Positions 14,888 to 61,251 of a stretch of 64,000 bases of DNA are shown here, one piece after another. Under the pieces are notes generated by a model that saw only the letters and a list, made by a program, of their open reading frames with translations, made no database searches and was not told where the DNA came from. Both the position numbers and the translations under genes were made by a program. Every line of letters begins with the position of its first letter. Positions within the stretch are counted from its first letter, which is position 1. The stretch comes from a virus, in IMG/VR virus record IMGVR_UViG_3300042356_000801, positions 27,170-91,169 of that record, one strand, 5' to 3'.

Positions 14888-17800
14888 ATGCCCTCTTCTA
14901 AGAAAAATTCCGACATTCAGTACAAGGCTGCACCGCAAGGAATGGTGAATCTTGACGAAGCCGAAGGCATCGTTGAATGTTTTGTCGCAGGTATTGGTAA
15001 CAAGGACTCAGTCGGCGATGTTTGCGCCCCTGGAGCTTTTGGCAAGAGCCTAATTAGGCGTAAGCCTCGCGTTGTTTGGGGTCATAACTGGAACGACCCA
15101 ATCGGTAAAGTCCTTGATATGTATGAGGTTCAGCCAAGTGACCCTCGTCTTCCTAACAAAATGAAGGCTGCCGGAATTGGTGGCTTGTATGCCCGCGTTC
15201 AGTTCAACTTGAAGTCAGAAAAGGGCCGCGAGGCTTTTGCAAATGTGGCATTTTTTGGCGAAGAACAAGAATGGTCAATCGGCTACAAGACGATTAATGC
15301 CAAGTTTGACCCACAGATGCAAGCAAACATTCTGTATGAAGTTGAGCTTTACGAAGTTTCTCCAGTTCTTCATGGTGCCAACCAGCTGACAGGAACAATT
15401 TCAATAAAGTCCGAAGACCAGTCATCAACAGTTTTAGTAAACGAACAACCATCTATCGACGGCCTCAACATAAATGAGCTTTCTTCAGTTTTAGATGCGT
15501 TGAAGACGATTGCGTCCACCACAGATGAAAAGTGTGGACCCGGAATGCCAATGGGCATGCCTGCGCAAATGCCAATGGTGATGCCATCTGGTGGACCAGG
15601 AATGCCTTCTGTATCAAAACCAACACAACCAACCGCCCCAAGAGAGTCCGTGAAGCCAGAAGTTCCATCAATGCCGGAAAACCCAATGCTTGTAGCAATT
15701 AGAAGAGAATTGGTCGACAGGACTGGTTCAAATATTATTGTTCGTTCCGTAATAGAAAACATAGTTGTATTCGACAGAATTACTACTGATGGAATTTCTA
15801 GTACTTATAAACTTCCTTTCAACTATGCAAACAATGAATTCATGTTTGGTAAGCCAGAGAAGATAAACACACAGCCAACTCCAGAGTCAAGTATCCCAAC
15901 AATGCCAGGAATGCCTCAACAGTTCGGCGGGTTCGATACTGGAAAATCTTTGATTTCGTTTGATGACTTTTCCTGGGTAGGTTTTAACCAGCAGATACCA
16001 GCTCAACAAGTTGATATATCTACGCTCAACAATGTCATCAGTAATCTTGAAAAGATTATCGAAGAGAAGTCGACATACATAATCCCCGTTGACATAAACA
16101 ACGCATTTGAAGTTAAGCAAGCAATTGACCCAATTCTTGATTACTACAGAGTTGATGCAACTGTTACTGAAGACGGCATCGTTGTTAAGTCTCTTGATAA
16201 CGAGTTCCTTGACGCAATGGACATTGCCACAAAGGGTGTGTTGCGCAGTATCGGCAACATGGTTGGCCGTGCGGTAGATAGACCAAACATTGGCAAAAAT
16301 AGGCGTGATAGAAATCCTAACCTCGCATCAAGAGGTCGAGGAATTGGTTCCCGTGGAGCTGTAGTAAGACTCGCCGACGGAACGATGTGGGACCCAAAAA
16401 CCGCACCGGACAGGAACAATAACGGCATTGTAGGTGAAGGCCTTACAGACGGTCGCGGCATGTCTCTGTCCCAGCCGGACCCAACACCAAGTGGACCCAA
16501 CTCAATCGATGCTCCAAAGACACCTAAAGCCCCTAAAGCTCCAAAGAAGGCTACAAGACTTTCTTCTGGCGGAGATGATTCTTCACGTGCTCGCGACCTT
16601 GCTAAGCAACGGGAAATGGATAAGGCAAGAGGTGCTAGTGCTACAAACCCAGTAGGAAAAGAAGCCGTCGAGCAAGCCAAAAAACTTGAAAGAGAAAGAG
16701 CAGCAGCACGTCAATCTGAAACTCGTCTTTCTTCTGGGCGCGTCATAATGTCGGACGGTCAAATGGAAATATCATTTGATGAAGAAGACGGAGATGGCAT
16801 CTATGACGCAACAAGAGACGGTTTCCGAATAATTAGAAATGAACGTGGCAGCGGCGGTGGCAGAAGATTCCCAGAATCCACAGCAACGTACGGCGGGTCA
16901 GGTTTAAGTGAAGCCGAGAAAAAAGAAATTCTTGACGTCGTCAAGGATAGTTCCAACCCATTGGTTCAAAAAATATTGAAGGGTTCATTTCCTAGTAGCT
17001 TGTCCGATAAACAGTGGGCTGTTCTTAAAAGGGAATTTGAGAAGAACAAGAAGAAAACTCCTTCTGGCTATATAAGCAATGTCCGAAGCGGTGGAACAGT
17101 TGCTCCTGGAGCAAAACTTGATGGCGGAATTGCTTATCTTGAACCAGACCACGCCAACGACAAAGACTACGAAAACCTACGTGACGCAATACAGACAGCA
17201 ATGCGCTCCAATCAGATGCTTCGTTTTGACTACAGTGGAAAAAACAGAGAAGTAATTCCAGTAAAAATTGAGAAGAACAATAAAACTGGTAAGTGGAACT
17301 TGACTGCCCAAGACGACACTGGGGCAAGAAAGCTTTTTAGTCTCGACAAGATAACTCCGTCTTCGGCAGAGCGCCTTTCCTCTGGTGAGTGGACAAAAAC
17401 TGATGACGGCATTGAGATGGACGCGCCGGATATTGATGGTGGTTACCTAATACAAGGCAACTCCAAAGATGGATTTGTAGTAACTAGATTTGCGGACGCT
17501 AGACGTAACGGTGGACAAAATGCTAACGAATACGAACATGACAAAGTTTTCACGTCAAGTAGCGCGGCTAAGAAGTGGGCAGAAAGAAACTACAAACTAA
17601 TCAGCGAAGAAATAGGCAAAGAGGACGTAGAAATAAGAAAAGCTGACGCAGAAAGAAGCGCAGACTTTGCAGACATGACTCCAGAAGATGCCGCAGATTA
17701 TGCCGCTTGGATGGACGAAGAAACCTGGAGAGACAGGGACCCAAGATTCTCCTCCGGTGAAGGATATTGGGTAGATGCTGCAGAAAAAGAAGCAGGAAAT

Positions 17801-20800
17801 GACCCTAAAAAACTTGCTGATTTCTTGATTGAACAAGGAATACTTGAAGAAGACCACCCAAGAGTCAAGAAGCTCAGAAACCGTTTAACCGCCGACGACG
17901 AGTTTGAAAAAACATTTTCAATGCTTGCCGAGATGGATGCTGAAGCTGAAGCAGAAAGCAGAGCAGAAAGGCGTTCAACCCAGTTTACGGCTGTAGAAAA
18001 CCCATTCGGACGTCTTTCCTCTGGTCAGAGAACATGGATAGATGCCGCAGAGGATGAAGCAGGAGACGACCCTAGGGAGCTCGCTGATTTCTTACTTGCA
18101 AGAGGTGTTATCGACGAGGAAGACCACCCAATAATCAAGGGGCTCAGAGATGGTCGTACAGCTGACGATGAACTCGAAAAAGCATACGAAATGCTTGCTG
18201 AGATGGATGCCGAAGACCAAGCAGAACACGCTGCACAGTTTAAGAACGCAGCCTCAGAAGTAAGCAGTCTGACCAAGCCAACAATGCCGGACCTTGATGG
18301 AATGGACGAAGACGAAGCAGGAGATGCGTTACAACAGGCAAATGATGAGATATTAAGTTTTGCTGATGGAACAGAAAACATTGCGAGAGAATACCTTGGA
18401 GACGCAGAATACAACAAGAGGTTTGGTGGCGCAGTTCCATTAATCGAAGAGATGTCAAAAAACCATGACGGCGGCAATTACGAGCGTGAGATAGCTCTTG
18501 AAAACGCACTTGAGCGTGCTAATGGATTCAACCTGTCAGTCGCCGGAGAGATGGAATTAGAAAGCAACAGATTCTCTTCTGGTATAGATTTTGACAAGAA
18601 AGGTGCATCAGGCCTCAGGGAGATGCGCCATGTTGAGCGCAATCCACTCAGGATGGATTCATCTGCTGAAAAAGCAGAACGTGATGCATATGAAAAAGAT
18701 GTTGCTGCCTTCATAAAGAACAATGGCTGGTTTGTTGAAGTACCGATGTACAACGGTGACCCAAAGTGGCAAAGTGAAGATTGGTATCGCGCAAGAGAGT
18801 TTGCTACAAACGTTGCAAAATTGCGTTTCGAGGACAACTACCAAAACGAAACTAATCAATTCATGCAGTTCTTTGATAAGCCAGGAAAGCCTTCAAAGAA
18901 AGACTTCTTCGCCAAGAAGGGGACCGTTGATTACAAGTCTTGGTACATGGCTCATACCCCTCTATTGACAAGCGAAATAGACAGCGTTCTTAATTCTGAC
19001 CTGTACTCTGACAATTACAAAGAGTCATACATGAATGCTATTCGTTCATTCTTGTATGTAAACAGGCCTGAATTTGGTCCATACGGTGGAGATGACCCCG
19101 CTTACCAAGCATGGCTACAACAGTCGGGTCTTGGTTACGGTGGAAGATACAGCACGTCAGGTCCAAAATTTGACGAAATGGGCAGATTCTCTTCTGGTGC
19201 TAAGCGTGGAAGTAGAAAAGATAACTACATAAATTCTTACGAAAACCCAGAAGACTTGAAAGAAGCAATCTTTTCTGAGCTTATTTTTGCAGGAGACTAT
19301 GAAGGAATGACTGCGGAAGACTTGGCCTACGCGCTAAATGTCAGGGCAGAAAGTGTTGAACCAATTCTTGAGCAAGTCAAAAAAGATGTAGGCGACGCAC
19401 GGGAAGACTACGACCGCTACTTAGAGTCACAACCAGAAATGACTGACGAAGACCTGCAGGCAATGGCGGATGACTATGCTCGCGCACAGACTGTAACCGA
19501 CAAGTTTAACAACATGACTCCAGAAGAAGCAGCCGATTACGCCGCTTGGATGGACGAAGAAACCTGGAGAGACAGGGACCCAAGATTCTCCTCTGGTAGG
19601 GAACTTACCGACGAAGAAAAGCAAGAACTGGGGGCTCAATTTGCCAGAGCCCAAGACAGGCGAAAAGCTGAACTGGAAGAACGGGGGGCTCAATTTGCCA
19701 GAGCCCAAGATAGGCGGAAAGCAAAAGAAGACCGCATCACTAAGTTCTACAGGGAGATGGCAGAGCAAAATGCAATGCTTTCAGAAATGACCCCAAGCGA
19801 ACTCGCGGATTACGCCGAGCAATGGAACGAAAGCCATGCAGAAGATTCTCGTCTTTCCTCAGGTGGTATAAACTATTACGACTGGATGGTAGAAAATGGT
19901 GTTCCGCGTTCAGCACTAGACGGTGAAAGGTTCCGTGGAAGAGACGCTTACGGACACTCTTTCCATGACTACTATGCGGAAGATGCTTTTGCAAATATCG
20001 ACGAAGCAGTCGTTGAAGCGCTTCTTTCTGACAGAACACAACGAACATCTATTCAGGATTTAGCAAAAGAAGCAAGAGAACATGGGCTTCAACTGGCCAC
20101 CAACCGCAGCATGCAGGAAGAGTTCTCCTGGGCTGAGGCAGTAAATCCAAAACCTGAGAGCTTGCGCGCGGAAGATTTGGTTCGTAGACCTGATGACTTA
20201 GGCTCAAACGCAAGACGCGTAGCTGAAGCAGTTGCTAACAACAGTAATGGCGCAAGAAGTGCTGCGTCTAGAGAAGACATTCTTCATTTTACCTACGATG
20301 GTAAACAGCGCTCTGTGTATCCAGAATCATTTGGGACAAGCAAAAAAGGCATTGCCTTCTTTAGAGCCTGGGACGAAACCGCAGACGATGGCAATGGTGC
20401 CTACAGAAGCTTTAATATCGACAAGATTGAGGGACTGGTTTCACACGCAATACCTCCATATGTTGAAATAGGAACAATGACCCCAGAGCCCAAGTGGAGC
20501 ATTGCTGACTTCAGCATAGAAGACTGGGCAAAAATTAATGACCGGTTCTATTTTAGAAGTAGCGAAGTTGGTCGGGCGGCGTTTGATATTGAGACCGCTA
20601 TTCAATGGGAGCTTGAAGGCACTGGAACAAGGGCTCCAGGTTCGATAATCGACACAGCCGAAAGAGAACTAAAGCGCCTCAAGCAAATTGCTTTCGACAA
20701 ACACATCACCGAGATGGTGGAAAAGGGTGCTACAAGTTCAAAATTCTCTCTTGACATTGAAAATGCAAAAAGATACGGTGTAAAGCCACTCAACAGAGGA

Positions 20801-23800
20801 AATAGACTGTCTTCTGGCGGTTCGGGCAGGTTCAATATTGCGGAAGCTCGTTCATTTGATGACATGTCAGACAGGGAACAGCTTGCAGTCTTCAACGGAA
20901 TCAAGGACAGACTTTCAGAAAATAACCCAAGCATGGTTAGCGTCCTGGAAGACGGCGGACTCAACATCGATGGATATCTTGCAGATTTCCCTCAACTTCA
21001 CCCAGACTTCTCTTCAGAAGAAAGCGGCGGAGAAAGGTTCTCTTCTGGTGGTTTTGCACCACCAAAGCCAAAAAGAGCAGCAAGAAAAGATGAAGAAGGC
21101 TTAATCGATGGCGCAAGAGTCATGCGAGGAAATACTTTCATCGAAAGCGTTGTTGGTCAGTATGAGAGAAATCGTGGAAAACTAAGTGATGCGCAGTGGG
21201 CCAAATTGGCCGAGATTGTTGGAAGAGGTTCTAAACCAACATCAGCCGGTGCTCCAACCCCAAAAAGGCCAAGCAAGGGTCCAAGACTGGAAAAGTACTC
21301 TGGTAAGCCTCGCAAGATAATAGGCATAGACGAAGTTGTACCATACGATTACCCTGAAGCCGAGTTTAAGCCAAACCCAGAACAGGCTGATGCGATTGAC
21401 GCCATGATGACAGGCTCTGACGTAAAAGTTGGAGCTTTAGCAGCAACAGGTAAAACAACAACAGTAATAAGTTTTGCCAATCGTTTGGCCGCTCAAGACC
21501 CAAGCGCAAGAGTGCTTTATTTAGTTTTCAACAGAGACGCCAAGAGCGATGCTGAAGCTCGCGGAATGGGTGACAATGTTTCCGTTATGACGATGGACGG
21601 TATTGCGTTTAAAGCCATGATAGGGGCTGGTGGTTCTCCAGGTCTTAGGCCTGGTCTAAAAACCAAACTGTATGAAGCCGGAAAAGCGTCCATGGATGAC
21701 TCGGTTAGGTCGTACGTAGGCAAGGCAGCATATCTTGGAATCAAGGGAGCTTTTATACCGCGAGATGGTGATGCACCACTTGAATTAACTCCCACAGATA
21801 TTTACAAAATTGTTGCTAAAGGCGTAAACGCTTACTCAATAAGTTCAGACGAAAAAATAGGACCACAGCATTTTACTGGGAAATTTAATGGACCTTTAGC
21901 AATTCCTGAAGACAGCCCAATAATGCCTAACGTATTAAAATATGCCAACAAGATGTGGGAAGACCTGCAACAGGATAGGGACAACTTAAAAAAGCAAGGA
22001 ATGCTTGGTCTTGAGTCTAACCATCTAACAAAGATGTGGGCACTGACTAAACCAGATGTTGCAAGTTTTGGTGGCACTGATGGCGTAAACGTAATCATGG
22101 TTGACGAAGCTCAGGATATTAACCCTGTGTTTGCAAAAATGATGAAAGATTCTAAGTCTGCACAAAAAATATACATTGGTGACACCAATCAGGCAATCAA
22201 TGCTTGGCGTGGAGCTGATGGCTCAACCTTGGATGCAGTAGAAGCTGAATACGATATGCCGATAACCGAATCGTACAGATTCGGAGCGAAGATAGCAGGC
22301 ATAGGCAACAGGTTCTTGACTTTGCTTGGGGTAAAAGAACGCATGACCGGAAAAAAGACAAGAGCAGGCAAAAACGGCTCTCGTGTTGATGTTCCAGGTG
22401 AAGTTGTTACCGAAATGAGCGTTTTAGACGCAACAATGATTCTTTGTCGCAGCAATGGTGGAGCCATAGCCGCAACCATGGAAGTAATTGAAGAGGGTGG
22501 CGGACAAAAGAAAGTTTACGGAAGCGCAAATTTCAAAAAAGATTTACAAAACTTTATTGACAATATTGAGTGGATGCAGAATGCCGAAAAAGGCGAACCC
22601 TATTGGACAAATTCTCGCGGAGAGAGAATGACAAGTAGGCCAGAATTCAGCGCGGACCTTGAAGGAATAACAACGTACGAAGAATTTAAAAAAGAAGTTG
22701 CTTCTGCGGACAATAACAGACTAAACATGCTCGATGGTTTATTGGAAAAGAATTCAATACCAGGACTACGTAATGCTTTAGACAATATTCTCACAAGAAA
22801 AGAAGACATAGAAAAGCTAGACCCTAACGATTATGTAAAGATACAAACAGCACATACATCAAAAGGCCTTGAATCTGGAAAAGTGAAAATTTGGTCAGAC
22901 TTCAGAAAGCCAAAATTTGACGAAGAACTCGAAGAATGGGTTATGCCAAACGAGCAGGAACTTAGGTTGTCTTATGTTGCTGTAACTAGAGCAGAAGAAG
23001 AAATTGACCTCGGTTCACTCGATTGGGTTTTTAACCACACAACAGATGCAGACGAGAAGCCAAACGCTCGTTCCGCCAGGTTGTCTTCTGGAAGAAGCAT
23101 TGCAAGAAGACAGGGCAAGGGCAAGAACAGTCGTGCTCGTGGACAGCGTCCATGGAGCGATGAAGACCGTCAAAACTTTGCTGATGGCAATAGGCTCCGT
23201 GCTCAAACAATTCCAGGCAAGCGCCGTGAGGGACCTGCAGCAGCAGAATTCTCTTCTGGTGAAAGACTTTCTGCTGGTGGTTCTGGATTCTATCTCGACA
23301 ACCCACCAGACGACGACTCCGATAAGTGGATAGACATGGCAAGCGACGATTACAGGTCTATATCTGATTCATGGAGGGATTTCCCAGAAGAAACAGATGA
23401 ATTCCTTTCCGACTTTTGGAGCTCTCATGAAACATGGGGCCAAAACCCTCCATCGCCATGGGAATTTACTGCAGAAAATCTTTCAGAAATAACAGACATT
23501 TTTGAAAACACGCAAAGACCTTCAGCATACGAGCCATACTATAAGCAATTACGCGACTTAGAAGGCCTTCCAAAAGAAGACATAATTAAAGCGTTAAAAC
23601 AAATACGCGAAGACGATGATGACACGCAAATGTTTGTGGAATTCTTTAACAAAGATGTTTTTGAAGTTGCCGAAGAAAAAGAAGCACCACTTGGTAAGTA
23701 TGTCCTTGAGGCATTGCAAGAATGGAACAACCTCCCCAAATGGCTAGAGAATAGCCAAACGGACGACGGTTACACTCGCCCGTACAGGTTCTATTCTGGA

Positions 23801-27406: not shown

Positions 27407-27493
27407 CATTCAACACACATACACCGCAATACTTACTCAAATGATACGTTTAGAGTATAATTTACGGTACTTACGAATTAGGAGTCATCTAAT

Positions 27494-29170
27494 ATGAACG
27501 ACGAAATGAACAACAGCCTTAGTGTCAGCACTGAGGGCGAAGTTCTGAAGTGCGCAAAAGGCGTAGATGCTTCAGCATGCGGGTTTACCCCTGGCGCAAA
27601 AGTGTGCGGCAAGTGCGGAGCCTTGCCGGTTCAGATGAAGATGGTCCCCGTGGATGAGGCCGAGGACGAAGAAGAGGAAATGGAAGACGAAGACAGAGCA
27701 ATGCCTGCGCCTCGTCCTGCACGCCCTGCTGGCCCAATGGCTATGGAAGATGCCAACATGGAACCGGAACAACTTGAGGTCCCAGAAGAAGACGAAGAAG
27801 AAGAATTGACCGATGAAGAAAAAGGCCTCCTTCGAATGCTTCTAAAAAAGCGCAAAGGTCGCAAGTTCAAGGGAATGAACATGGAAGATGACTACGAAGA
27901 GGAAGAGGATATGACCGACGAAGAAGAGATGACTGACGAAGAGAAGGCTTTTCTCTCGCAGGTAAACAAGAAGCGTAAGGCTCGCGGTCTCGCCGCCACC
28001 ACAAACGGCTTCAAGGGCATGAACGGCACACACATGACGCCTGACGGAACCGAGATGGAAGACATGCCCGATGAAGAAGAGGACTTGACTGATGAAGAAA
28101 AAGAACTCTTGGCAACCCTAAACAAGAAGCGTAAGGCTCGTGGTCTTGCTTCAACTTCAAACGGGTTCAAAGGCAAAGGCATGGACGAGGACGAAGTGTC
28201 TGAAGAAATGCCCGACGACGAAGAAGTAGAAAAGCAGATGATGCTTGAAAGAATGCGCAAAAAGCGTATCAAGTCTATGGGTATGAAGTCTGAAGCCTTT
28301 GGTGCCAACGGCTACCTGTGTGCAATTGAAAGAAAAGCTTATCCAGGCGGTTCGTCTGTTTGTGATGATTGCCCAGGCGGATGTATTGCTGAAAAGGGTC
28401 TTCCTGGCTTGCTTCATGTTGAAGGCATTGCCGAGCAAATGTTTGACGGAAAAGTTCTTGATTCTGGCTACTCAGCAAAAGCTGACATGTACGTCATTGA
28501 TGTGCAGACAAAGAGTGGCTCTGTGAATGAAGTTTTTATTGATGGAACAACTGCTGAAGTGCAAGGCTTCCACAAGCTTGACAACTCAGTGTTTGAACAG
28601 AAGTCAGCACAGGGTGGACTTGAGATGATTCAGTTCCACGAAGCAGCAGACATTGCGGTCAAGTCAATTGATGGCCATGTAATAGGTGTAGAGCCAGACT
28701 CTTTTGAGGGAATTGATTCATACGCAGTTGAAATTGACGGCTTTGACGGAAAGTCATACGACGTTTTTGTTTCTCTTGACGGAGAAGTCCTTGGTTACGA
28801 TAAGTACGAGATGGACGAGGCAGAAGAGATTGAAGCAGAGGCTGCAGAGATTGCACTTAAACGCGCATTTACTGACGACCAACGCAACTCGATGTCTAAA
28901 GAAGGAACTGCAATGTCAGATGGTTCTTTCCCAATTAAGAGCGAATCAGATTTGCGTAACGCAATTCAGGCTCACGGTCGCGCAAAGGATAAAGAAGCCG
29001 CAAAGCGTCACATCATGAAGCGTGCTAAGGACATGGGCAAAGAAAGTCTTATTCCTTCCAACTGGGTCATGGGTGGCGGAACTGAAAAAAAGAGTGACAC
29101 CGTAGACGCAGGTCTTATGGCTTCTTTGATTGAGTTTGAACTTCTTCAAGCCGAAACAGAAACAAACTAG
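27494..29170 (+). CDS. Acidic head-associated protein (scaffold/internal-protein candidate)
   Basis: AGGAG SD; Cys clusters; three (L/M)TDEEK...KKRK.R...FKG repeats; PepSY-like segments; C-terminal AMSDGSFPI....DLRNAIQAHGRA motif. Confidence 0.65.
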   Translation: MNDEMNNSLSVSTEGEVLKCAKGVDASACGFTPGAKVCGKCGALPVQMKMVPVDEAEDEEEEMEDEDRAMPAPRPARPAGPMAMEDANMEPEQLEVPEEDEEEELTDEEKGLLRMLLKKRKGRKFKGMNMEDDYEEEEDMTDEEEMTDEEKAFLSQVNKKRKARGLAATTNGFKGMNGTHMTPDGTEMEDMPDEEEDLTDEEKELLATLNKKRKARGLASTSNGFKGKGMDEDEVSEEMPDDEEVEKQMMLERMRKKRIKSMGMKSEAFGANGYLCAIERKAYPGGSSVCDDCPGGCIAEKGLPGLLHVEGIAEQMFDGKVLDSGYSAKADMYVIDVQTKSGSVNEVFIDGTTAEVQGFHKLDNSVFEQKSAQGGLEMIQFHEAADIAVKSIDGHVIGVEPDSFEGIDSYAVEIDGFDGKSYDVFVSLDGEVLGYDKYEMDEAEEIEAEAAEIALKRAFTDDQRNSMSKEGTAMSDGSFPIKSESDLRNAIQAHGRAKDKEAAKRHIMKRAKDMGKESLIPSNWVMGGGTEKKSDTVDAGLMASLIEFELLQAETETN

Positions 29171-29187
29171 AGCAAGGACGACCCGAC

Positions 29188-32100
29188 ATGACGGGTACGT
29201 TTAAGACTAAAACAAGAGTCTATACATCACCTGAATTTTTTACCCCGATAACGGGCCGAAAGAGTTTTACAGACGCCGCTATCGACTTTAGACGCGGGCT
29301 TATAGAGAACTCTTCCATGGCCGTTCTTAATGCTGACCTTTCTGTAAAGGCCGCAATGGGGGCGGGTCTTTCTGCTTCTGCTTCATCCATAGGGCAATCG
29401 TCTCAAGGAACATCTCCAAATACTGACGGTAAAAAGCGTGTCAACAAAGGCGGCGTTCCGGGGATGGTTGAGGACGAGCGTGGATTTAGGTACATGCCCG
29501 ATGCAACATGGGGTCCAGACAAAGTTCTCAAACTGTTTCCTTCTCCAGAAGAAAGACAGTCTTCTAATAAAGTTCCAAACTTTGGTTTTGTAGACAGAGA
29601 ACCAATTTTTACTCCTCAACAGTTTGTTGAACAGATGGAGAAAAAACCCAAAATCAGGATGTCTAAGTACAAAATAAATACACGTACTGGCGAACCCATA
29701 GAAGACACTGAAGTTGAGTTTGACCGAATGAGGTTTGGTAAAACTTTTAAAGTAAACCCAGACATCTCTAACGAAATAGAAGAAGACATATCTGACGAAA
29801 CATCAGGAGAAATGCAAGAGAAGAGTCTTGGCTCGACCCTGAAGCAAAGAATGCCAGGTGCAACTATTGCTGGTAGAGCAGCCGCTCGCTTTGGTGTGAT
29901 TATGGATGAGCTTGGGAAGATGCGTTGTCCTCCTGGGACTCCAGCGGCAAACCAATTCACTGACATGACAGGTTCTAACTGTTTTGGAATAACTCCAGGA
30001 AATATGATTTCTGAGGCAATCAACCTTGCGCAAAGACTAATTCCATCCGATGATTCAAGACGTACTGATGGTTTTACCAGAGGGGTAGCCAACTTCTTCT
30101 TCGACATGGAGAATGGCATATTTGGCAACAACGTCTGGTATCACCCAGACGGAACCAGAATGAAGCATGGTGAATGGCGTAAGTTCCGTGAAGCTAACGG
30201 TGTTGCAAGAAACGAACGCTGGATGGTCAACGGCGTTGAGCGTGTTTATGCAGAGATTGACGCTCAAGAGGCGCGCTTGACCGACCTTTATCAAAAGCTT
30301 GACATTGATACAAGAGACAGCAGAAAAGCAACAAACGAACATCTATACGAGGCGTTTGAAAAACTAGAACAATCAGGCGTTATAACGGCAAAGATTGAAG
30401 GCAGGCCTACTGAGGCTGATGTTGAAGCAATGATGACTTCACGCCTAAAAAATACCGACGCACACTGGAACACTCGCTCGAATGAAGAAAAAGCACTGTT
30501 TCTCAAAATTGAAATTCAAAGATATAGAGAGCTTGAGCGTGCGCACCTTGAGGCTTTCCTTGATGAGGTAATCAAAAATCCTGAACACATGAAGTCTATC
30601 CGGGCAGTAAGAATGCATCCAACCGGCAAAGACAGAGCTTCGTATGGCATAGACGGCATAGACAGAAGAACCAATATGCCTTACGGTTCAATCAATATAG
30701 ACATACCTAAATCAATGGAATTTGAAGACTCTCTTCTTCCAGCTCTCTCCCCTGATGAAAGACTCAGAATATGGGCAGAAGGAGGGATGTCTGAGGCACT
30801 CAGGTCTTCCACTGTAAAAGATTTCCTTGTTAACTCAAACGCCTATGCCGGTCAGATGATAGCAATGGTCGACGGCGGTCGTGGTCTTGGCCGCCATGAT
30901 ATGAAGCACGAGATAGCTCACTCGATTCAGGCTGCAGCCATTTTTGAACACATGAAGAGAGAACTTGATGCTAGGGGTTCTCTTGTTATGAACACCAAGA
31001 ATGGACCCAAGACCATTACAAGTGTTGCCGAACTCGATAACGACATGCTTGCTGCATTAATGATAAATGAAAACTATATGGGGATTGACCTCGATTCATT
31101 AAAAAGCCTCCGTTCTAGAGGGGACATTGTTGCGTTGTTGGGGGGTAAATATATTGATGACGTTGACAATCAATATGATGGCAAAAGGCGTGCTGCTGAA
31201 ATAGGTGCAGAAATATGGGCACTTCGAAGCGCAGGTTTAATATTCGGAGATGACGTAGACGCGGCTCTTGAGTACATGGACGATGTTGCTTCTGGAAAAA
31301 TAACAGCAGACAGAACAGTTGCAGACAGCGTTCTTACTAGAAGAGTTTACGATGACCATTTAGACGGTACCAGGAGAGTTCGTGAAGCTAGAGAAGCCCG
31401 CGAAGCTGCTGAAGAAGCAGCAAGGCTGGCCGAAAGTGCAGATACTCCAGATGAAGAATTTTTTGATGCTGATACCAGGGCTGCAGAAGACAGGATGTCT
31501 GATGCCAGGGAGGCATATGCTCTAGAAAAACGTGCAGAAGTAAAAACCACAAAAGAACAAGCCAAGACAATGACAGAAGAAGAGATGATTGATTTTCTCT
31601 CTTATTCAACAGAAGGTTCTGACGCTCTTACGGAAATGCTTGATGCAGCCGGAGAGGCCGGTGAAGAGCCGGACTGGATGAGCGTCATGGATAGGGACAC
31701 TCTTGATGCGCAGTCAAAATCCGTAATAGATGAGTGGGTAAAGCGCTTTACAGTTAGAAGAAGTCCTGAAGCCTTAGAAAAACTATTAAATATGGTTGAC
31801 GACAAGCGTGAATCAAGAGGAACACTTTCTCCTGAAAAAATAGAAGAACGTCGTCATCGTGAATACCTAGAGGGTGCTACGGAACGAGCAAAGGACTTGG
31901 ACTTAGAGGACCTCGTTGAGTTCTCTTCAAACTGGGAAGAACTTGCTTCATCCGAAGGGATTGAGGCTCCAGAGCGCACTCGTAGAAAAGAAGCACGCGA
32001 CATGTACAGGGATGAGTACATCAAGAGAAGAACAGAAGGCCCTGATTCTGTTTCTAGAGAAGATGCCCGCAAAGAGTTTAATGCAAAATTAAAAGAACTG

Positions 32101-35100
32101 CGCAAGCCAAAAACTACTGCTGAACGCAAAAAACGAGACAGGGTTAAGCCAAAGAAGTTCAATAGCCACAAAGGCAAGGATGGGGCACACACTTTTGCCA
32201 CACAAGAAAGAGCTCGCCTACTGGAAGGCGCAACAACAGCAGAAAAGATTGCTTTTGTTGAAATGGGCAGTGGTGAAACCGATGTAATAAACATGATGGC
32301 CGGCCATTCTGAAGGAATGGCTTCTGCACGAGCAATACAAAGAAGAAATACTCGCCTTAAAAAAAATGGCATCCTGCCTGATGGCCTCAATCAACACGAG
32401 GCTTCAGTAGAGGAACAAGTAGAAAACTTCTATATTCCACTTCTTGAGCTGATGGATAAATCTTCACTATCTCAGATGGTGGAAATGCACCTAGACGGTA
32501 ATGAGGATTCTGGACTATATATAGAAGACCTGCTTAGCGGTAATGCCCCAGAATTTACTATGGGTATAGGCACCGGAACCTTAGTAACAAACAAAACAGA
32601 TTTTTCTGACGGCAAGAAGATAGTAATCCGCGTGCCAGCAGGAAGCAGAGCTTTATTACCTGACTGGTCATATCGTTCCGACTCCGACGACGGAGAACAG
32701 AAGATAATGATTCCTCCTTCAAAGCTTCACCTTGTTGAGATTCGCGATGATGGAACTGTTGTTCTTGAAGTCGGCGAACAGATGGGAACAGAAGCAACGT
32801 TAAAAACTGCAATAGAAGAAATAGGTCCTGGAAACGGTGGAGCAGGAGATGTTGCCTATAGGACAGGTCTTCAGAAAAAACTAAACAAAGTTGTCGACAA
32901 AAGAATCACAGAGCGCCGCCGACAGGGGATGTTCGACCCCGATAGTAAGTCTCCAATTGAGGAAGAAAGATTCAGCACAACAGCAGACACTGCTGCAACT
33001 GGTGCTGGGTTTATGCCGGATAGGCCTCCTTCTGCTCCAAGTCGTGCCACCACCGATAGGGGCGACATAGGAACTGGCGACTACGATGACGATTTAAGCC
33101 CAGCTGAGCGCAGATTCCAAAGGGAAGAAAGAAACAGAAGAAGAGGAAACCCAAGACTTTCTTCTGGAGCTGATACTGAAAAACTTGTTTCAATATCTGG
33201 TCCGCAAGATGCTCGCAGGGTTATTGATAGCAACCTGCCAGCATCAGTTAGAACTGAAAAAGAAGCATATACCATTTTGACTGAACTTGCAAAAATGGCT
33301 AGGGAAGCCAAGGCAAAAGGGAAAGACGCTCCTAATTACGATTTTTGCAAAGTTTCTATTCCGGGAACAAACCTATTTTGCGGTGACTCTAAGGGAATTC
33401 CTAGAAAAAAAATGCCTCAGTTTAGTGGGAAGCCAACTCCTGGTTCACCAGCAGATTCAAGACCCAAAGATAAAGATGGCGGGGTCGACGGCACGCAAGA
33501 CTTTATTAAACACATGGAAGGACTGGGAGTAAAAGTCGAAGAAAAAGAAGTTCTTGCGTCAACGTTAAGAGCATCCCAGAATGAACTAGTTGGAGAAAAA
33601 GTCGCAGGGATGATGACCAATGAGAACTTTGACCCTGCAGGTGAACCAATTTTTGTTAGCCGAGATGGTTATGTTATTGACGGTCATCATAGATGGGCCG
33701 CCCAAGTTGGTCGAGACCTTGAAGACGGAAACCTTGGTGACCTTCCATTAAACGTAAAAGTTGTGGACATGGACATCTTGGAAGTTCTTGAAGAAGCAAA
33801 CAAATTTGCTCAAGAGTTTGGTATTGCTCCCAAAACAGCAGGAAACGACGCGGCCCAAAACAGGTTATCTTCTGGTGCCAAATGGGGGCAGATGCCTTCA
33901 AACAATCAACAACTTGCTCGCCTTCTTGAGCCATCAAATAATGATGGCTTCAACGAAATATACGGCCCTCCACAGACACGCCAAGAAAGAATCACCCAGA
34001 TGGCTGAGATGCAGTCAGAAGTGATGACTTCTCTGCGTGAAATGTTTGACAACGTTCCAGGAGCAGGAGATTCTCTTGGACTTGACCTGAACCACATAGA
34101 CCCATACCTTGTTGACTTCATTAAGAATTCTTCAGATGAAGAAATTTATGAACTTATTTCTCAATCCGCAAAAAACCTTCATGAGAGTTTTGACGCACGA
34201 CCACGAGTGCGCATGAGGCAAGACGAGCTTGATGGGTTTGCCGCTAGCGGCAGGTACGGAAGAGAAAAATCTTTTAATAACGAGCGTTTCTCTTCTGGTC
34301 TTGTAAAAAAGGGTATAAAAGCAAGGGCCAAAGAACGTGCCATAGAAATAATTGCCGACAGAATTGGCATGGATGAAGACTCACGCGAAGTGGCAGAGAT
34401 GGTGTTCAATACGGCCTCTGCACTCAAGTACGGCCCAGAAGCAGCACTTACTCGCTTGGCTATAGACCTCGGAAGAAGAGGAAGCAGAGAACTTGCAGAA
34501 AAAACCGTAGAAGAACTTGTTAAGCGAGGAAAAATAACCGACGAACAAGCAAAATCTATTCTTTCAAAACTGGACAAGGTTGCACCAGAAGGACTTCCAG
34601 AACCATTAAAGCGCGGTGTTGGAAGAGCAGCAAGAGCAACAGCAGATGCTATTGATACTCCAGAGAACAGAGAGCGCTTAGAAAATGCCCGTGAAGCAGT
34701 CGGAGAAGCCGCTGGAAGAGCGAGAGAAGCGGTTGGTGAAGGTGCCCGCAATATTGCTGAGCGTGGCCGTGAGAGGCTTAGGAAGCTCCGTGAAAGAGAC
34801 GATGCCGGAAGTCTACCTTCTGCACCGGAAGATGTACCGTTTGGTGATTTTGACCCAGCAGATGCTCCCGTAGGAAGACTTGCTAGCGGAAGAAGATTGG
34901 ATAGAAGAGTTTCTGGTTCGGATAATGGTCGCGAACGCATTATGGAAGGCGCAAACGTAACTCGCACCCGCCTAAGTAGTGGTGAGACGCCAAAGATAGA
35001 CAAGCCGAAGAAGCCAAGCAGGCCAAGAGACCCCGACAACGGACCAATGACTGGAAAGTTCATTGACATATTCCGTGGCGTTAAGTCATATCAAGAAATG

Positions 35101-37941
35101 CTTGACAGATATAACGAGCAAGAAGTTATTTTCTTTGACTACGAGACAACAGGTTTTAGCCCTACGGACGATAGGCCTGTTCAGATTGGTGCAGTAAAAA
35201 TGAAGGGCGGGAAAGTCGTTGAAAGATTCAATGTTTTTGTTAACCCCGAAAAAGAACTTAGCGACTGGTCAAAGGAAAATCTACTTAATGCTGACGGTAA
35301 ACCTCTAACCAACGACTGGTTATCAGGTCAATCTTCAGTCAACGAAGGCCACCAGCAGCTTATTGACTTCTTTGGCCCTGATGCCCTCCTTGGTGGACAG
35401 TACACGCCTTTTGACCTTGGCTTCCTTGAAGAGTCACTAAAGAACGCAGGAATTGAGTGGACCCCTGCTGGAGTCATAGACAGCAAGGCCCTTGCTGATG
35501 AACTTCTTCCAAGATGGACAGCAGATGGCGGAGATGGTCCTTTTGCTCTTAACCCAGATGGCACAAAGTACGCAACAAATAGCCTTGGACCGCTTTCTGA
35601 TTATCTTGAAGTCGAACTGACAGCATGGCATACAGCAGACGCAGACTCTGAAGCGTCAGCAATGATTGTCCAAAAGATACTTGAGCGTGCAGCAGAAAGA
35701 GAAGACACTCCAAAACATCTTCTTGATGTTGACAACCTTCCATCTGTTGTTGCTGAACGCAGGGCTAGACACAAGCTCGACATGGACAAGTACTTTGCCG
35801 ACCTAAAGCAGTACAAGGTTGACAATGAAGCATACGAAGCTTCTCAAACCGGAGAAAGACTTTCTTCGGGAGCAACCATGGATGACAAACTAGGGAAGAC
35901 TGTCGGTATTGACGAACTTCTTGCCGACCCAACAATGGCTGAAGAATTACGCAAAAGAAGCGCGGACATAAAAGCACTTTCTGACAGGGAAAGAGCACAA
36001 AGATTTACCGACCCTAACGACCCAGACTCTATCTATGTAATTCACTTTGGAGCGAGCCAATTAGAAGGCGGCCAAATAGACCCTGCTCGTTCGCGAGGGC
36101 AGGTGGGTTCAAACGTCCCTGCGGCAGGAAATACACGTTTGGTAAATGACCAGACAGCCAGATATATGGTTGGATTACGCAATACCGCAAGACGAGACCT
36201 GTCTATTCTGGAAGAAATAAAACGTCAAATGGAGACTGATGGAGTTGTTGACTTTGAGGCGATAGCAAGAACAGACCCGAAAGACTCCATGAGGGCGGGA
36301 AGAGCAAAAATATTGCTTGGTGTTAAACGTACTGACCGTGACTACGAGCGTTCAACGTTCACGCCTCCTTACTGGAACCCTGAAAATTTTGACGCTCAAA
36401 TCGCAAGCGAAAACAGAACCCTATCTAGTCTTGACAAGGTTGCCGACCAGTTAATTGCAGACGACTACCAGTACACGAGTACATACAGGGCTTCTGGATT
36501 ACGAGATTTACGGAGCTCTTACGGAGGGAGGTACGCAGAAGGCGGCTCTACAGAATGGGGCGACAACTCGCCGCGCTCGTCAACTACCGGTATTCACATA
36601 TTAAAAGTAAAAGTAGGCGACAACGCGATTGAGCAAAATAGCGTTGGAGAAACTCACCTTGTTGGTAAACACACCCCAGTTGCTTCACTTGTCGTGAGGG
36701 CAGATGATTATGATGATAATCCTGCTAATGACACATGGACCGGATGGATGGATATGGCGATTGAGGCCGACATCAAGAAAGGGTCAGGTGAGAGGCTTTC
36801 TTCCGGTGCAACAGGACGTTCCCCAGGACTAAAAACAAACCGCGACAGACCCATGAGTGAATACGGAATGGACTGGAAGCCTGAGTATTCAGATAAAGAG
36901 TGGGTCAAGCCAGCAAAAAATTGGGAAGGATGGGATGATGTCCCTGTTACTGAAGTTGACTTGTCTTCAGAAATCCGCCCAACAGAGTCACATCTTAAAG
37001 GTTCCTCTATAGACAAAGTCGTATCTGGAGAAGAAGCTTTCAGAGATGGCTACCATCCAAACGTAATCATAGATACCGATGGCAAGATGTACGTATCTGA
37101 CGGACATAACAGAGTTGCAATGCACCGCGCTCTTGGCAATGAAAAGATGACAGCAAGAGTTATCGACCTCCGTACACAAGATGCTCCATGGGGAGACAAG
37201 ACTCCGAATACAGCCGAAACAAGACTTTCTAGCGGAGAAGGCCCACGGTCAGGAAAGCCAAAACGAGCAAAAATGTACAAGGGCTACACATTAAACGAAC
37301 CAGCCAACCCAACTCCAAAACCAGGCGAATACCCAGACGACGTGGTGGAAGCAGCTACCAAGCAAAGGGCAAAAATAGCAGAGGTAGAAGCGGAAATCAC
37401 CAAGCTTCTTATTGACCTTGCCGACAAGAACAAAGCACAGATGGAAGGTCTTGACTTTAGGATGAAAGCCCTCAACTCGCTAATGCGCAAGATAGCCGCA
37501 GAAAAAGACAGCGAGCACGGTGGAGACGCACAAAAAGCAGCAGAAGCGATGTCTGACGTAGTTAGATACACAATGTCCTACGAGCCAGACGACTACGTTG
37601 CCGGCGTCAAGGACGTTATTGCTCAAATGCAAAAACTCGGGTATGACCTGAGGGTAAAAAATTACTGGGAAGCCGACGACCCGTATCAGGGAATCAACGT
37701 CGCGGCAATTCACCCTAACGGAACAAAATTTGAACTTCAGTTCCACACTCCTCAGTCTGTTGCCGATAAAGAGAAGATTCACGCAATCTACGAAGATTAC
37801 AGAACCGAAAAAGACTACCTAAAGCGTCTGGTTATGTACCGAAAAATGGTAAATTTAGCTAACAAGATTGGCGTCCCAATTCCACCAGATGAGCTTATGA
37901 AAATCGGCATCATCAAAACGCAACCATTTACACCGAGGTAA
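29188..37941 (+). CDS. Giant polyvalent head protein 2 (2,917 aa) with RLSSG-delimited enzyme modules
   Basis: Single ORF with AAGGA SD; domains listed below. Confidence 0.85.
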   Translation: MTGTFKTKTRVYTSPEFFTPITGRKSFTDAAIDFRRGLIENSSMAVLNADLSVKAAMGAGLSASASSIGQSSQGTSPNTDGKKRVNKGGVPGMVEDERGFRYMPDATWGPDKVLKLFPSPEERQSSNKVPNFGFVDREPIFTPQQFVEQMEKKPKIRMSKYKINTRTGEPIEDTEVEFDRMRFGKTFKVNPDISNEIEEDISDETSGEMQEKSLGSTLKQRMPGATIAGRAAARFGVIMDELGKMRCPPGTPAANQFTDMTGSNCFGITPGNMISEAINLAQRLIPSDDSRRTDGFTRGVANFFFDMENGIFGNNVWYHPDGTRMKHGEWRKFREANGVARNERWMVNGVERVYAEIDAQEARLTDLYQKLDIDTRDSRKATNEHLYEAFEKLEQSGVITAKIEGRPTEADVEAMMTSRLKNTDAHWNTRSNEEKALFLKIEIQRYRELERAHLEAFLDEVIKNPEHMKSIRAVRMHPTGKDRASYGIDGIDRRTNMPYGSINIDIPKSMEFEDSLLPALSPDERLRIWAEGGMSEALRSSTVKDFLVNSNAYAGQMIAMVDGGRGLGRHDMKHEIAHSIQAAAIFEHMKRELDARGSLVMNTKNGPKTITSVAELDNDMLAALMINENYMGIDLDSLKSLRSRGDIVALLGGKYIDDVDNQYDGKRRAAEIGAEIWALRSAGLIFGDDVDAALEYMDDVASGKITADRTVADSVLTRRVYDDHLDGTRRVREAREAREAAEEAARLAESADTPDEEFFDADTRAAEDRMSDAREAYALEKRAEVKTTKEQAKTMTEEEMIDFLSYSTEGSDALTEMLDAAGEAGEEPDWMSVMDRDTLDAQSKSVIDEWVKRFTVRRSPEALEKLLNMVDDKRESRGTLSPEKIEERRHREYLEGATERAKDLDLEDLVEFSSNWEELASSEGIEAPERTRRKEARDMYRDEYIKRRTEGPDSVSREDARKEFNAKLKELRKPKTTAERKKRDRVKPKKFNSHKGKDGAHTFATQERARLLEGATTAEKIAFVEMGSGETDVINMMAGHSEGMASARAIQRRNTRLKKNGILPDGLNQHEASVEEQVENFYIPLLELMDKSSLSQMVEMHLDGNEDSGLYIEDLLSGNAPEFTMGIGTGTLVTNKTDFSDGKKIVIRVPAGSRALLPDWSYRSDSDDGEQKIMIPPSKLHLVEIRDDGTVVLEVGEQMGTEATLKTAIEEIGPGNGGAGDVAYRTGLQKKLNKVVDKRITERRRQGMFDPDSKSPIEEERFSTTADTAATGAGFMPDRPPSAPSRATTDRGDIGTGDYDDDLSPAERRFQREERNRRRGNPRLSSGADTEKLVSISGPQDARRVIDSNLPASVRTEKEAYTILTELAKMAREAKAKGKDAPNYDFCKVSIPGTNLFCGDSKGIPRKKMPQFSGKPTPGSPADSRPKDKDGGVDGTQDFIKHMEGLGVKVEEKEVLASTLRASQNELVGEKVAGMMTNENFDPAGEPIFVSRDGYVIDGHHRWAAQVGRDLEDGNLGDLPLNVKVVDMDILEVLEEANKFAQEFGIAPKTAGNDAAQNRLSSGAKWGQMPSNNQQLARLLEPSNNDGFNEIYGPPQTRQERITQMAEMQSEVMTSLREMFDNVPGAGDSLGLDLNHIDPYLVDFIKNSSDEEIYELISQSAKNLHESFDARPRVRMRQDELDGFAASGRYGREKSFNNERFSSGLVKKGIKARAKERAIEIIADRIGMDEDSREVAEMVFNTASALKYGPEAALTRLAIDLGRRGSRELAEKTVEELVKRGKITDEQAKSILSKLDKVAPEGLPEPLKRGVGRAARATADAIDTPENRERLENAREAVGEAAGRAREAVGEGARNIAERGRERLRKLRERDDAGSLPSAPEDVPFGDFDPADAPVGRLASGRRLDRRVSGSDNGRERIMEGANVTRTRLSSGETPKIDKPKKPSRPRDPDNGPMTGKFIDIFRGVKSYQEMLDRYNEQEVIFFDYETTGFSPTDDRPVQIGAVKMKGGKVVERFNVFVNPEKELSDWSKENLLNADGKPLTNDWLSGQSSVNEGHQQLIDFFGPDALLGGQYTPFDLGFLEESLKNAGIEWTPAGVIDSKALADELLPRWTADGGDGPFALNPDGTKYATNSLGPLSDYLEVELTAWHTADADSEASAMIVQKILERAAEREDTPKHLLDVDNLPSVVAERRARHKLDMDKYFADLKQYKVDNEAYEASQTGERLSSGATMDDKLGKTVGIDELLADPTMAEELRKRSADIKALSDRERAQRFTDPNDPDSIYVIHFGASQLEGGQIDPARSRGQVGSNVPAAGNTRLVNDQTARYMVGLRNTARRDLSILEEIKRQMETDGVVDFEAIARTDPKDSMRAGRAKILLGVKRTDRDYERSTFTPPYWNPENFDAQIASENRTLSSLDKVADQLIADDYQYTSTYRASGLRDLRSSYGGRYAEGGSTEWGDNSPRSSTTGIHILKVKVGDNAIEQNSVGETHLVGKHTPVASLVVRADDYDDNPANDTWTGWMDMAIEADIKKGSGERLSSGATGRSPGLKTNRDRPMSEYGMDWKPEYSDKEWVKPAKNWEGWDDVPVTEVDLSSEIRPTESHLKGSSIDKVVSGEEAFRDGYHPNVIIDTDGKMYVSDGHNRVAMHRALGNEKMTARVIDLRTQDAPWGDKTPNTAETRLSSGEGPRSGKPKRAKMYKGYTLNEPANPTPKPGEYPDDVVEAATKQRAKIAEVEAEITKLLIDLADKNKAQMEGLDFRMKALNSLMRKIAAEKDSEHGGDAQKAAEAMSDVVRYTMSYEPDDYVAGVKDVIAQMQKLGYDLRVKNYWEADDPYQGINVAAIHPNGTKFELQFHTPQSVADKEKIHAIYEDYRTEKDYLKRLVMYRKMVNLANKIGVPIPPDELMKIGIIKTQPFTPR
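30880..31260 (+). other. Domain: zincin-like metallopeptidase
   Basis: HEIAH at 30907 and downstream AEIGAE. Confidence 0.55.
33390..33830 (+). other. Domain: ParB/Srx-like #1
   Basis: IPRKKMPQ, LRASQNEL..EKV, PIFVSRDGYVIDGHHRWAA. Confidence 0.8.
35120..35690 (+). other. Domain: DEDDh 3'-5' exonuclease (DnaQ-like)
   Basis: FFDYETTGF, QIGAVK, PFDLGFL, IDS, WHTADADS. Confidence 0.88.
36930..37180 (+). other. Domain: ParB/Srx-like #2
   Basis: IRPTE..L, VII..DGKMYVSDGHNRVAM.RALG...M.ARVID. Confidence 0.75.
37440..37941 (+). other. Domain: RelA/SpoT-like nucleotidyltransferase (small alarmone synthetase-like)
   Basis: RMK..NSL.RK, SDVVRYT, VKNYW, YQGIN, FELQFHT. Confidence 0.8.
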
Positions 37942-37943
37942 TC

Positions 37944-38192
37944 ATGAAAAACAGATTTTTTACAAAAGGCGAAAACGTTAAATTATTTCTACTGTCCATA
38001 GACGAGGGAAAAGAAGAGCTTCGTGAGTGTTTTCTTTCAAATGGCAAATGGGAAGACACATCAGACTTGATGAAAATAATGATTGACGGCTTCAATGGGA
38101 TAGAGGAAATAGACGAAAAAACAGCGTCCGAACTCTACAAGGACAAAGGCTTTGATGAAGCCATGTCTAAATTTGGTGGTTCCGATGGCTGA
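37944..38192 (+). CDS. Small acidic protein; candidate inhibitor of the upstream RelA/SpoT-like domain
   Basis: 82 aa, starts 2 nt after the stop with GAGG SD; role inferred from position. Confidence 0.5.
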   Translation: MKNRFFTKGENVKLFLLSIDEGKEELRECFLSNGKWEDTSDLMKIMIDGFNGIEEIDEKTASELYKDKGFDEAMSKFGGSDG

Positions 38193-59940: not shown

Positions 59941-60147
59941 ATGACCCTACGAGACCAAAAAGAGTACATGCTTCAAACCGTAGAACGCTTTAGAGGCTAT
60001 GACCACCCTAAAGCACGTGCCTATGTCGAGTACTACGACCAAAACGGCCACTTCCCGTCCGGCATCTGGGATGATGTGCAAACACTGGACGTGCAGTTCG
60101 CCTTGCAGATTGCAACAGGTAAACGACCTGAGGATTTAGAAGCATAA
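59941..60147 (+). CDS. Hypothetical protein
   Basis: TAAGGT 7 nt before ATG. Confidence 0.55.
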   Translation: MTLRDQKEYMLQTVERFRGYDHPKARAYVEYYDQNGHFPSGIWDDVQTLDVQFALQIATGKRPEDLEA

Positions 60148-60304
60148 CCCCCTCGCATTTAGAAGAACAATCTCTTCTCTCTGGGGAGTTTGGATAAATC
60201 TAGTGGAGATTTGGTGAGCTTCAAAAATTTCAAATTGAATCCCCCCCCGAATTGGGGTCGGCGTCGTGAAGGAATCGGGGCTACATACCCCCCATTCTGA
60301 GGGG

Positions 60305-61245: not shown

Positions 61246-61251
61246 AAATGC

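Follow-up and report, generated by a model that had tools for sequence, protein, structure and literature searches.

Polyvalent proteins, described by Iyer, Burroughs, Anand, de Souza and Aravind in 2017 (PMC5512222), unite two to fifteen disparate domains in one polypeptide, are predicted to be injected and have been proposed to be processed by peptidases. In phage T4 (internal proteins IPI-III and Alt, protease gp21) and in phages phiKZ and SPN3US (proteases gp175 and gp245; PMC5694885, PMC10052503), proteins that are packaged in the head and ejected from it are cut at a short consensus that is used in capsid and scaffold proteins too. Here we analyse a stretch of 64,000 nucleotides (hereafter, the window) that makes up the right-hand part of the virus record of an uncultured phage, a single contig of 91,169 bp (IMG/VR record IMGVR_UViG_3300042356_000801, positions 27,170 to 91,169) and that encodes two giant proteins punctuated by the motif R-[L/F]-S-S-G. 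Judged by their sequences, the giants are best read as cargo polyproteins made of a conserved carrier block and interchangeable effector modules. We found no published description of such linkers, the study of Iyer et al. (PMC5512222) being the closest.

Like the polyvalent proteins, both giants are phage-encoded polypeptides of many activities (S78 protease, helicase, ArdC-N and MPTase in giant 1; zincin, ADP-ribosyltransferase-like, DEDDh nuclease and alarmone synthetase-related domains in giant 2), and their genes stand beside those of the terminase, portal and capsid. Unlike the proteins of PMC5512222, a paper in which no recurrent linker motif is described and the word “linker” never appears, they carry a strict, lineage-specific five-residue word that is common to several genes per genome and to the tape measure protein. 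The assemblin-like peptidases of PMC5512222 are placed C-terminally, whereas S78 is N-terminal here. Two positions ahead of the (here putative) cut the motif has a hydrophobic or small residue, as does the consensus of T4 and phiKZ. The targets in those phages are, however, products of separate genes with one or few sites, which mostly serve propeptide removal, whereas about 19 modules are joined in one gene here, the protease is fused to the cargo and belongs to family S78 and not S77, the consensus ends in Ser instead of Glu, and the motif drifts between close relatives.

The HK97 prohead protease gp4 belongs to the same Pfam family and its gene has the same portal-to-capsid position. Foreign proteins fused to the targeting region of the HK97 protease were reportedly carried into proheads in work of Duda, Oh and Hendrix in 2013; the fusion seen here is apparently natural and reaches a scale of 3600 amino acids (aa). 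Eukaryotic RNA virus polyproteins, with picornavirus 3C, flavivirus NS3 or potyvirus NIa as their proteases, are likewise encoded by one open reading frame (ORF) with an embedded protease and a short junction consensus that co-varies with lineage; they differ from the arrangement in this DNA phage, which involves putative virion cargo rather than replication proteins, freely shuffled accessory cassettes and non-homologous proteases. The MuF polymorphic toxins of temperate phages (PMC12226406, PMC3482391) resemble the giants in being head-module proteins with a variable C-terminal toxin-like domain, including pyrophosphokinases of the RelA/SpoT type, and in having a small ORF directly behind, but the giants contain many modules instead of one and these are divided by linker motifs. 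The MuF domain itself gave no Pfam match in the giants, and PHROG matches cover just the C-terminal parts of the families (residues 314-493 of 504 and 376-707 of 740).

Positions below refer to the window, and features are on the plus strand unless stated otherwise. Giant 1 (14888-27406; 46 giant homologues) starts at the ATG at 14888, where homologues also begin, and comprises in 4172 aa an S78 protease block and about 18 modules. Giant 2 (29188-37941; 69 homologues) comprises in 2917 aa a conserved core of 1322 aa and 8 modules. About 28 modules are counted over both giants. An earlier note on this DNA had listed 15 exact R[LF]SSG matches in giant 1 and seven in giant 2, along with four near-variants, and each of them was reproduced at the same coordinates. 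In giant 1 the motif reads RLSSG at 16556-16570 (site 1), 16724-16738 (site 2), 17372-17386 (site 3), 18011-18025 (site 5), 19850-19864 (site 9), 20804-20818 (site 10), 23078-23092 (site 12), 23846-23860 (site 13), 25490-25504 (site 14) and 26249-26263 (site 15), and RFSSG at 17744-17758 (site 4), 18569-18583 (site 6), 19184-19198 (site 7), 19583-19597 (site 8) and 21035-21049 (site 11). In giant 2 it reads RLSSG at 33154-33168 (site 1, at the end of the core), 33862-33876 (site 2), 34969-34983 (site 4), 35857-35871 (site 5), 36793-36807 (site 6) and 37222-37236 (site 7), and RFSSG at 34285-34299 (site 3). The near-variants are EFSSG (from 23246) and RLSAG (from 23264), which lie six residues apart within 23246-23278, RMSSG at 25391-25405 and, in giant 2, RLASG at 34876-34890; we detected a further one, RFYSG, at residue 2997 of giant 1 (in the numbering of the ORF that starts at TTG).

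The motif is far too frequent for chance. An analytic calculation from amino acid composition, together with 5000 shuffles, gave an expectation of 0.012 matches in giant 1 and 0.008 in giant 2, against 15 and 7 observed, and the highest count in any shuffle was 1. The only other six-frame match in the window, RLSSG at 27255-27269, is encoded by a short off-frame ORF inside the end of giant 1; since about 0.3 matches are expected over six frames, it is compatible with chance. The earlier note had not seen the exact motif in other ORFs of the window; genome-wide the motif is not limited to the giants, being present in the tape measure protein (see below).

Every test that was run supports the motif as a linker between independent modules. 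The earlier note had the motifs bracketing whole domains, and when they were mapped on domain boundaries none fell within any detected domain, domain ends lying a few residues from the sites. The helicase ends 3 aa ahead of site 12 of giant 1, the ArdC module starts 1-4 aa behind site 15, and sites bracket both the DEDDh module and the last module of giant 2. In an AlphaFold2 model of giant-2 residues 1890-2917, with a mean predicted local distance difference test score (pLDDT) of 74, all five sites of the modelled stretch (sites 4 to 7 and RLASG) are in segments with pLDDT<50; such segments account for 13% of the model and lie between confident modules. The 12 residues on each side of the sites are more hydrophilic than the rest of the proteins (Kyte-Doolittle value of -1.23 versus -0.70), and random sets as hydrophilic as these flanks were obtained in 0/5000 and 5/5000 cases.

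Homologues agree with this placement. We compared the ends of BLAST local alignments with 115 metagenomic homologues and counted those within 8 aa of a site, which yielded 75 ends versus a null of 21±11, and 81 versus a null of 11.5±10. In giant 1, breakpoints were counted at sites 12 (15 breakpoints), 3 (13), 6 (11), 4 (10) and 15 (10), among others; site 2 of giant 2 had 19. Since breakpoints cluster at the sites, the modules behave as shuffled cassettes; module order varies among homologues, and the linker is kept while the modules differ. Whole-protein self-BLAST of the giants revealed no internal repeats. When the giants were split at the motifs and the pieces compared all against all, just four related (paralogous) module pairs were found; the motif therefore does not belong to a repeated domain. 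Some very short spacers between motifs measure 31-56 aa.

Internal duplications and homologue breakpoints that start or stop at the motif are also what one would see if the motif were a by-product of DNA-level junctions of cassette recombination, or a repeat artefact, with no role as a peptide. The codons speak otherwise. As the earlier note had remarked, they vary, and we find that they do so at every position of the motif (AGA, AGG or CGN for Arg; CTN, TTR or TTC for Leu and Phe; TCN or AGY for Ser), and conservation and selection therefore act at the peptide level. The peptide is strict at 22/22 sites, with no conserved flanking positions beyond the five motif residues. A DNA junction written in so many synonymous codons (TCN versus AGY, AGA versus CGN) is already contradicted by the data, and its 15 bases are too short for homologous recombination; we regard such an origin as hardly conceivable.

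Linker-punctuated giants are real and widespread. The protease block that heads giant 1 is encoded on at least 575 IMG/VR contigs, and the most frequent 4-mers in homologues of giant 1 are linker words: R[LF]SSG, KLSSG, GFSSGR, GLSSG, DGFASR (19-22 copies) and GFSS. Homologues of giant 2 have the same words plus GVSGKM, ISGRMG, GLSSR, GLAS and GMRS. By lineage the words are R[LF]SSG, KLSSG, GLSSG, G[FL]ASR, GLAS, G[LM]RS, STRS and ISGRM, with Ser as the most constant residue across lineages and a hydrophobic position that tolerates L, F, M, V or I inside one genome. A recurrent 4-mer is present in 51/64 giants that bear S78, whereas no linker word is present in the ten giants (P0037-46) that belong to other families and lack the protease. 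Protease-headed giants at three other loci (L038, L039 and L056; 2757-3860 aa) show no clear 4-mer and contain S-R-S-x-R four to six times, which may be a more degenerate code of the Ser/Arg type, like STRS.

Five IMG/VR contigs could be extended from the protease to the capsid gene, and with the present phage they make six genomes compared. Across the extended contigs gene order is kept and capsid proteins are 73-85% identical. Each genome uses one word in every giant ORF: GLSSG occurs 10+4 times in its genome, GLAS 9+5+2+2 times in four ORFs, and STRS 12+5+9+9 times in four ORFs that total more than 12,000 aa. In the STRS genome (G004) the four giant ORFs (3336, 3387, 3124 and 2770 aa; loci L071, L087 and L086) lie between the portal and capsid genes and the protease block is a separate ORF of 474 aa. 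In the present phage this N-terminal carrier block (14888-16555), which consists of the protease and two conserved domains and ends at the first motif, is the sole part of giant 1 kept in all six genomes; beyond the first motif, all giant content is variable cargo. Two distant genomes (G006 and G007, the latter rated 100% complete by CheckV) have a protease block that is 42% identical and carry [RK]LSSG in the protease-headed giant and in a second giant 40 kb off. Relatives of simpler build, which lack giants, encode the protease block on its own (568-843 aa) along with smaller CPPGT-domain proteins, and they show no linker word. The closest cultured phages, which infect Gordonia and Brevibacterium, are distant (capsid protein 48% identical), and the accessory cargo proteins of their head modules are encoded by separate genes, with no polyproteins.

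We consider that R-[L/F]-S-S-G is probably a cut site for a phage-encoded protease. The S78 prohead protease may quite possibly be the enzyme, although we name it tentatively. Its domain (14969-15400) heads giant 1 and matches PF04586 with 37-42 bits versus a cut-off of 21, as well as phrog_3244 (“head maturation protease”). His66 (in VWGHNW) and Ser130 (in EWSIGY), which from knowledge of the family we take to be the catalytic pair, are invariant in 12 divergent homologues. The gene (from 14888) lies between those of the portal (12716-14788) and capsid protein (from 43918), as for proteases of the HK97 gp4 type; both giants are located in this interval, with the terminase gene also flanking, in agreement with the head location proposed earlier. 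In the scheme that we favour, carrier blocks would bring whole giant chains into the procapsid, where the S78 protease, of the class that trims the capsid delta domain, would cut every linker; about 28 separate pieces would result and would exit with the DNA at infection. Packaging, the cleavage itself, the enzyme and the timing are what we infer. The proposal of the earlier note, packaged polyproteins cut at a standard linker into about 25 ejectable products, is thus supported in part, namely for the linker, the variable modules, the head-module location and the protease domain.

The scissile bond would most plausibly follow the second Ser, as hydrophobic-x-Ser|x. In T4, the internal proteins are cut by gp21 at (L/I)-x-E, and the assemblin of herpesviruses, an enzyme of the same fold, cuts at (V/L/I)-x-A|S. 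By analogy, the presumed site has the same shape as the hydrophobic-x-Glu and hydrophobic-x-Ala sites of these relatives. In phiKZ and SPN3US, too, ejection proteins are processed at short motifs by prohead proteases (PMC5694885, PMC10052503), the class of enzyme to which S78 belongs. The pointers that make us favour S78 are its above-cut-off domain with invariant His and Ser, the likeness of the motif to a junction in the major capsid protein, and the lack of the ArdC-linked zincin in three motif-rich relatives. That last enzyme, the MPTase zincin, had been proposed in the earlier note as a cutter; it is absent from G002, G004 and G005, all rich in motifs, and was rejected as the general enzyme.

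The capsid junction is HLSSR (44194-44208), at the variable stretch where the delta-like domain gives way to the conserved body of the capsid protein. By lineage it reads HLSSR in the present phage, Q-L-[ST]-S-R in other LSSG phages, GLRE or VRE in G[LM]RS lineages and SLGS in the GLAS lineage. Its middle residue, taken in the pattern hydrophobic-x-Ser, is of the same class as that of the giants in 10/17 lineage rows versus 5.0±1.7 when the pairings were permuted (P=0.003), in a test whose pattern was chosen post hoc and whose rows are phylogenetically related.

This qualification is one of several points that weigh against S78 as the enzyme. A cruder first test of the junction (BLOSUM comparison of the top 4-mer with the junction), which was diluted by low-complexity words of Pro and Lys, was not significant (P=0.10), and homology to HK97 allows the mature capsid N-terminus to be near residue 147 instead of at HLSSR. 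The S78 catalytic domain is about 80-90% identical (by eye) across lineages with very different motifs; since it is nearly constant while the motifs differ, a change of specificity would have to be achieved by a handful of substitutions at most. In motif-less relatives the S78 domain is 69-79% identical to that of the present phage, and the zincin core of giant 2 is found in every motif-bearing genome. With S78 in every relative and this zincin in every genome with the motif, presence or absence of a protease does not separate the candidates. A predicted complex of the S78 domain with a 35-aa linker peptide scored 0.00 and counts for neither side.

The tape measure protein adds to these points. 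The gene for the putative tape measure protein of the phage (1712 aa) follows that of the tail sheath on the minus strand, outside the window (positions 19002-24137 of the genome; L090:3-5138). The protein contains RLSSG twice, at residues 42 and 565, and RMSTG once, at residue 584. Its homologues carry the word of their own lineage at aligned positions, namely GLATT plus GLASA or GLASS in the GLAS genome, STRS twice in the STRS genome, and RFASG plus RLASG in G006, so that the lineage word is found at two conserved positions in four lineages. The tape measure proteins of three motif-less relatives have nothing at the aligned positions. As can be seen, the linker code is read on a protein that is not a procapsid or head protein, and these sites are left unexplained by an enzyme that acts solely in the prohead; no candidate explanation fits cleanly.

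One answer would be that cutting is done by a conserved gluzincin encoded in the core with which giant 2 begins, a candidate that the earlier note had not singled out; this enzyme may act after ejection and thus reach the tape measure protein, and it would cut R|LSSG. The core (1322 aa) ends at the first RLSSG and, with the giant-1 block, is the only part kept in all six genomes. It contains an N-terminal domain with an invariant CPPGT signature (29926-29940, from the alignment of cores) and an invariant HExxH of gluzincin-type metalloproteases (30907-30921), whose downstream Glu is also invariant in 24 aligned cores. Residues 982-1203 (32131-32796) are predicted to have a C3/VIP2-like ADP-ribosyltransferase fold (AlphaFold2 model and VIA-align; Z 12.3, 177 aligned residues). 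The ExE position of this domain reads EQK in the present phage and EQK, QK or GR across aligned cores, and the domain is probably inactive. In its modelled layout, a zincin with a VIP2/C3-like domain that lacks ExE, the core resembles anthrax lethal factor, and an ESM Atlas lead of 0.87 connects it to “lethal factor domain” clusters. Residues 1-1324 of giant 2 gave no Pfam match at E<=1, to the lethal-factor-like family ATLF (PF07737) or to any other, and the core is not assigned as a member. Several of the smaller proteins of relatives that lack the motif (in G009, three ORFs) also carry the RCPPGTPxANxFT domain N-terminally, and this CPPGT domain may be a capsid-targeting or carrier domain.

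In lethal factor, the pairing of zincin and VIP2-like domains forms a groove for linear peptides, and thermolysin-type enzymes usually cut ahead of a hydrophobic residue; the tolerance of L, F, M, V and I at that position of the motif is as for an S1' pocket. The fold match and the ESM Atlas lead to lethal factor clusters, the invariant HExxH and Glu, and the presence of the core in 7/7 motif-bearing genomes examined speak for the zincin, as does the CPPGT homologue without HExxH in 2/3 motif-less relatives (G009 and G012). Identity between cores of different genomes is 28-34%, and this fast evolution parallels the drift of the motif. Zincin processing of polyvalent proteins was proposed by Iyer et al. 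(PMC5512222), and action after ejection would account for the tape measure sites. Nevertheless, a phage zincin that dices cargo is without experimental precedent, the core matches no Pfam peptidase family, one relative (G010) has HExxH and no motif, and the association is based on 12 related genomes. The likeness of the capsid junction to the motif is left unexplained by the zincin, and the STRS motif has no hydrophobic residue. We thus rate the zincin as a rather unlikely cutter, if a serious one. A scheme that combines these elements, in which the giants would be threaded uncut into the new host, where a protease injected along with them (S78 or the lethal-factor-like zincin) would dice both the giants and the ejected tape measure protein, the linker being a private, fast-evolving code of protease and site, strikes us as unlikely.

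The tape measure and capsid sites also bear on the view that the motif is never cut and that the giants stay intact, with the motif, as in the alternatives offered by the earlier note (capsid anchoring or phosphorylation), serving for docking (to the capsid interior, portal or a chaperone) or as a signal for Ser modification. Ser is indeed the most constant residue across lineages, the motif is in exposed linkers, and full-length delivery of the N4 virion RNA polymerase and of ArdC/TraC1 is discussed in PMC5512222. A docking signal, however, need not mark every module border or spacers of 31-56 aa and is not expected at the delta junction of the capsid protein or in the tape measure protein. 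A folded chain of 4172 aa and about 19 domains would presumably be hard to pass through the tail tube, and a signal for basophilic kinases fails for the GFASR, GLAS and STRS lineages. An uncut signal explains the data less well and appears improbable.

Staphylococcal phage 80-alpha uses the host protease Prp, and a host protease, of the producing or the newly infected cell, could similarly read a motif with which the phage mimics a host processing site. Cutting of both head cargo and tape measure protein would be covered, and lineage words could track hosts. Against this, phages with capsid proteins that are 73-85% identical use RLSSG, GFASR and STRS, and if the cargo were cut ahead of packaging, in the cell that makes the particles, it would be parted from its carrier block. 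A host enzyme is, in our opinion, very improbable. A site for a phage-encoded protease, with S78 as the favoured enzyme, remains our reading of the motif.

As to the modules themselves, most of those in the giants gave nothing in Pfam at E<=1. The domains named in the earlier note held up in part. In giant 1, the UvrD-type helicase module (21353-23071; phrog_1967, 6e-64; PF00580) lies right ahead of site 12, and the ArdC-N and MPTase-PolyVal zincin module (26264-27139; PF08401, 6e-26; PF18818, 7e-43), with HExxH at 26867, lies right behind site 15. A WYL-like stretch (17183-17356; PF13280) scored 18 bits, below the cut-off of 21.8, and about 12 further pieces have no known family. In giant 2, the DEDDh 3'-5' exonuclease module (35023-35754) was confirmed both by PF00929 (1e-13) and by fold (Z 19.7). 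The proposed ParB-like domain depends on a signature, DGHHR (33679-33693, within the module 33169-33861; DGHHRW, residue 1498; ParB/Srx-like), that had no Pfam match. For the last module (37312-37908), the proposed RelA/SpoT assignment failed in Pfam (PF04607, 16 bits versus a cut-off of 27) but stood by fold, which is that of a small alarmone synthetase (Z 18.2, root mean square deviation 3.9, 195/203 residues aligned to 8vx3_A) and also matches Tas1, RelP and CapRel. Two giant-2 modules are without known family. Directly behind this last module, an ORF for an acidic protein of 82 aa (37941-38189) begins at the stop codon of giant 2; it could encode an immunity or antidote protein for the alarmone-synthetase-like module.

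Gene order across the window is large terminase (minus strand), portal, giant 1, a 558-aa ORF, giant 2, family-less ORFs and major capsid protein. Upstream of the window, the minus strand encodes the tail sheath, the tape measure protein and fibre genes; with a tail sheath among them, the phage is therefore contractile-tailed. The portal protein (PF04860, 2.3e-48; phrog_2662) marks the start of the head module, and the major capsid protein (43918-45288; PF05065, 3e-42, and PDB matches) has the HK97 fold with an N-terminal delta-like domain. The motif-free 558-aa ORF between the giants (27494-29170) is present in all relatives, including motif-less ones. No family could be assigned to it in Pfam (E<=1) or PHROG, a faint PepSY match (E=0.14) being all that appeared. 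Its product has an acidic N-terminus and clusters of Cys, and it may be a scaffold or a partner of the protease. A 666-aa ORF (40321-42321), kept in all six genomes at 661-684 aa, had no match in Pfam (E<=1) or PHROG, and the PHROGs search left the ORFs beside the capsid gene without identification. Small head-module ORFs at 43034-43753 and 46018-47082 contain DUF3721 (1.9e-13) and DUF6321 (1.9e-28), both domains of unknown function. GC skew dips to -0.25 in the 2-kb bin 60001-62000, the adjoining bins being about zero or positive.

Whatever the enzyme, the linker is a key for annotation: it delimits about 20 family-less modules in the present phage and thousands over at least 575 contigs, and the modules so delimited are candidate anti-defence or host-takeover proteins with known boundaries. 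The drift of the motif among phages with near-identical capsids is a natural series for the evolution of protease specificity, and the tape measure sites raise the question of where and when virion proteins are processed. The linker together with the carrier block could serve to load foreign proteins into capsids. If the code is private to a lineage, as in the scheme of cutting after ejection, it would let that lineage swap effector cassettes and would prevent cross-processing with the cargo of co-infecting relatives. If the linkers are cut, they would define exchangeable cassettes, and tailed phages would be making the proteins that they inject by a genuine polyprotein strategy, in which one promoter and one packaging signal would suffice for dozens of effectors.

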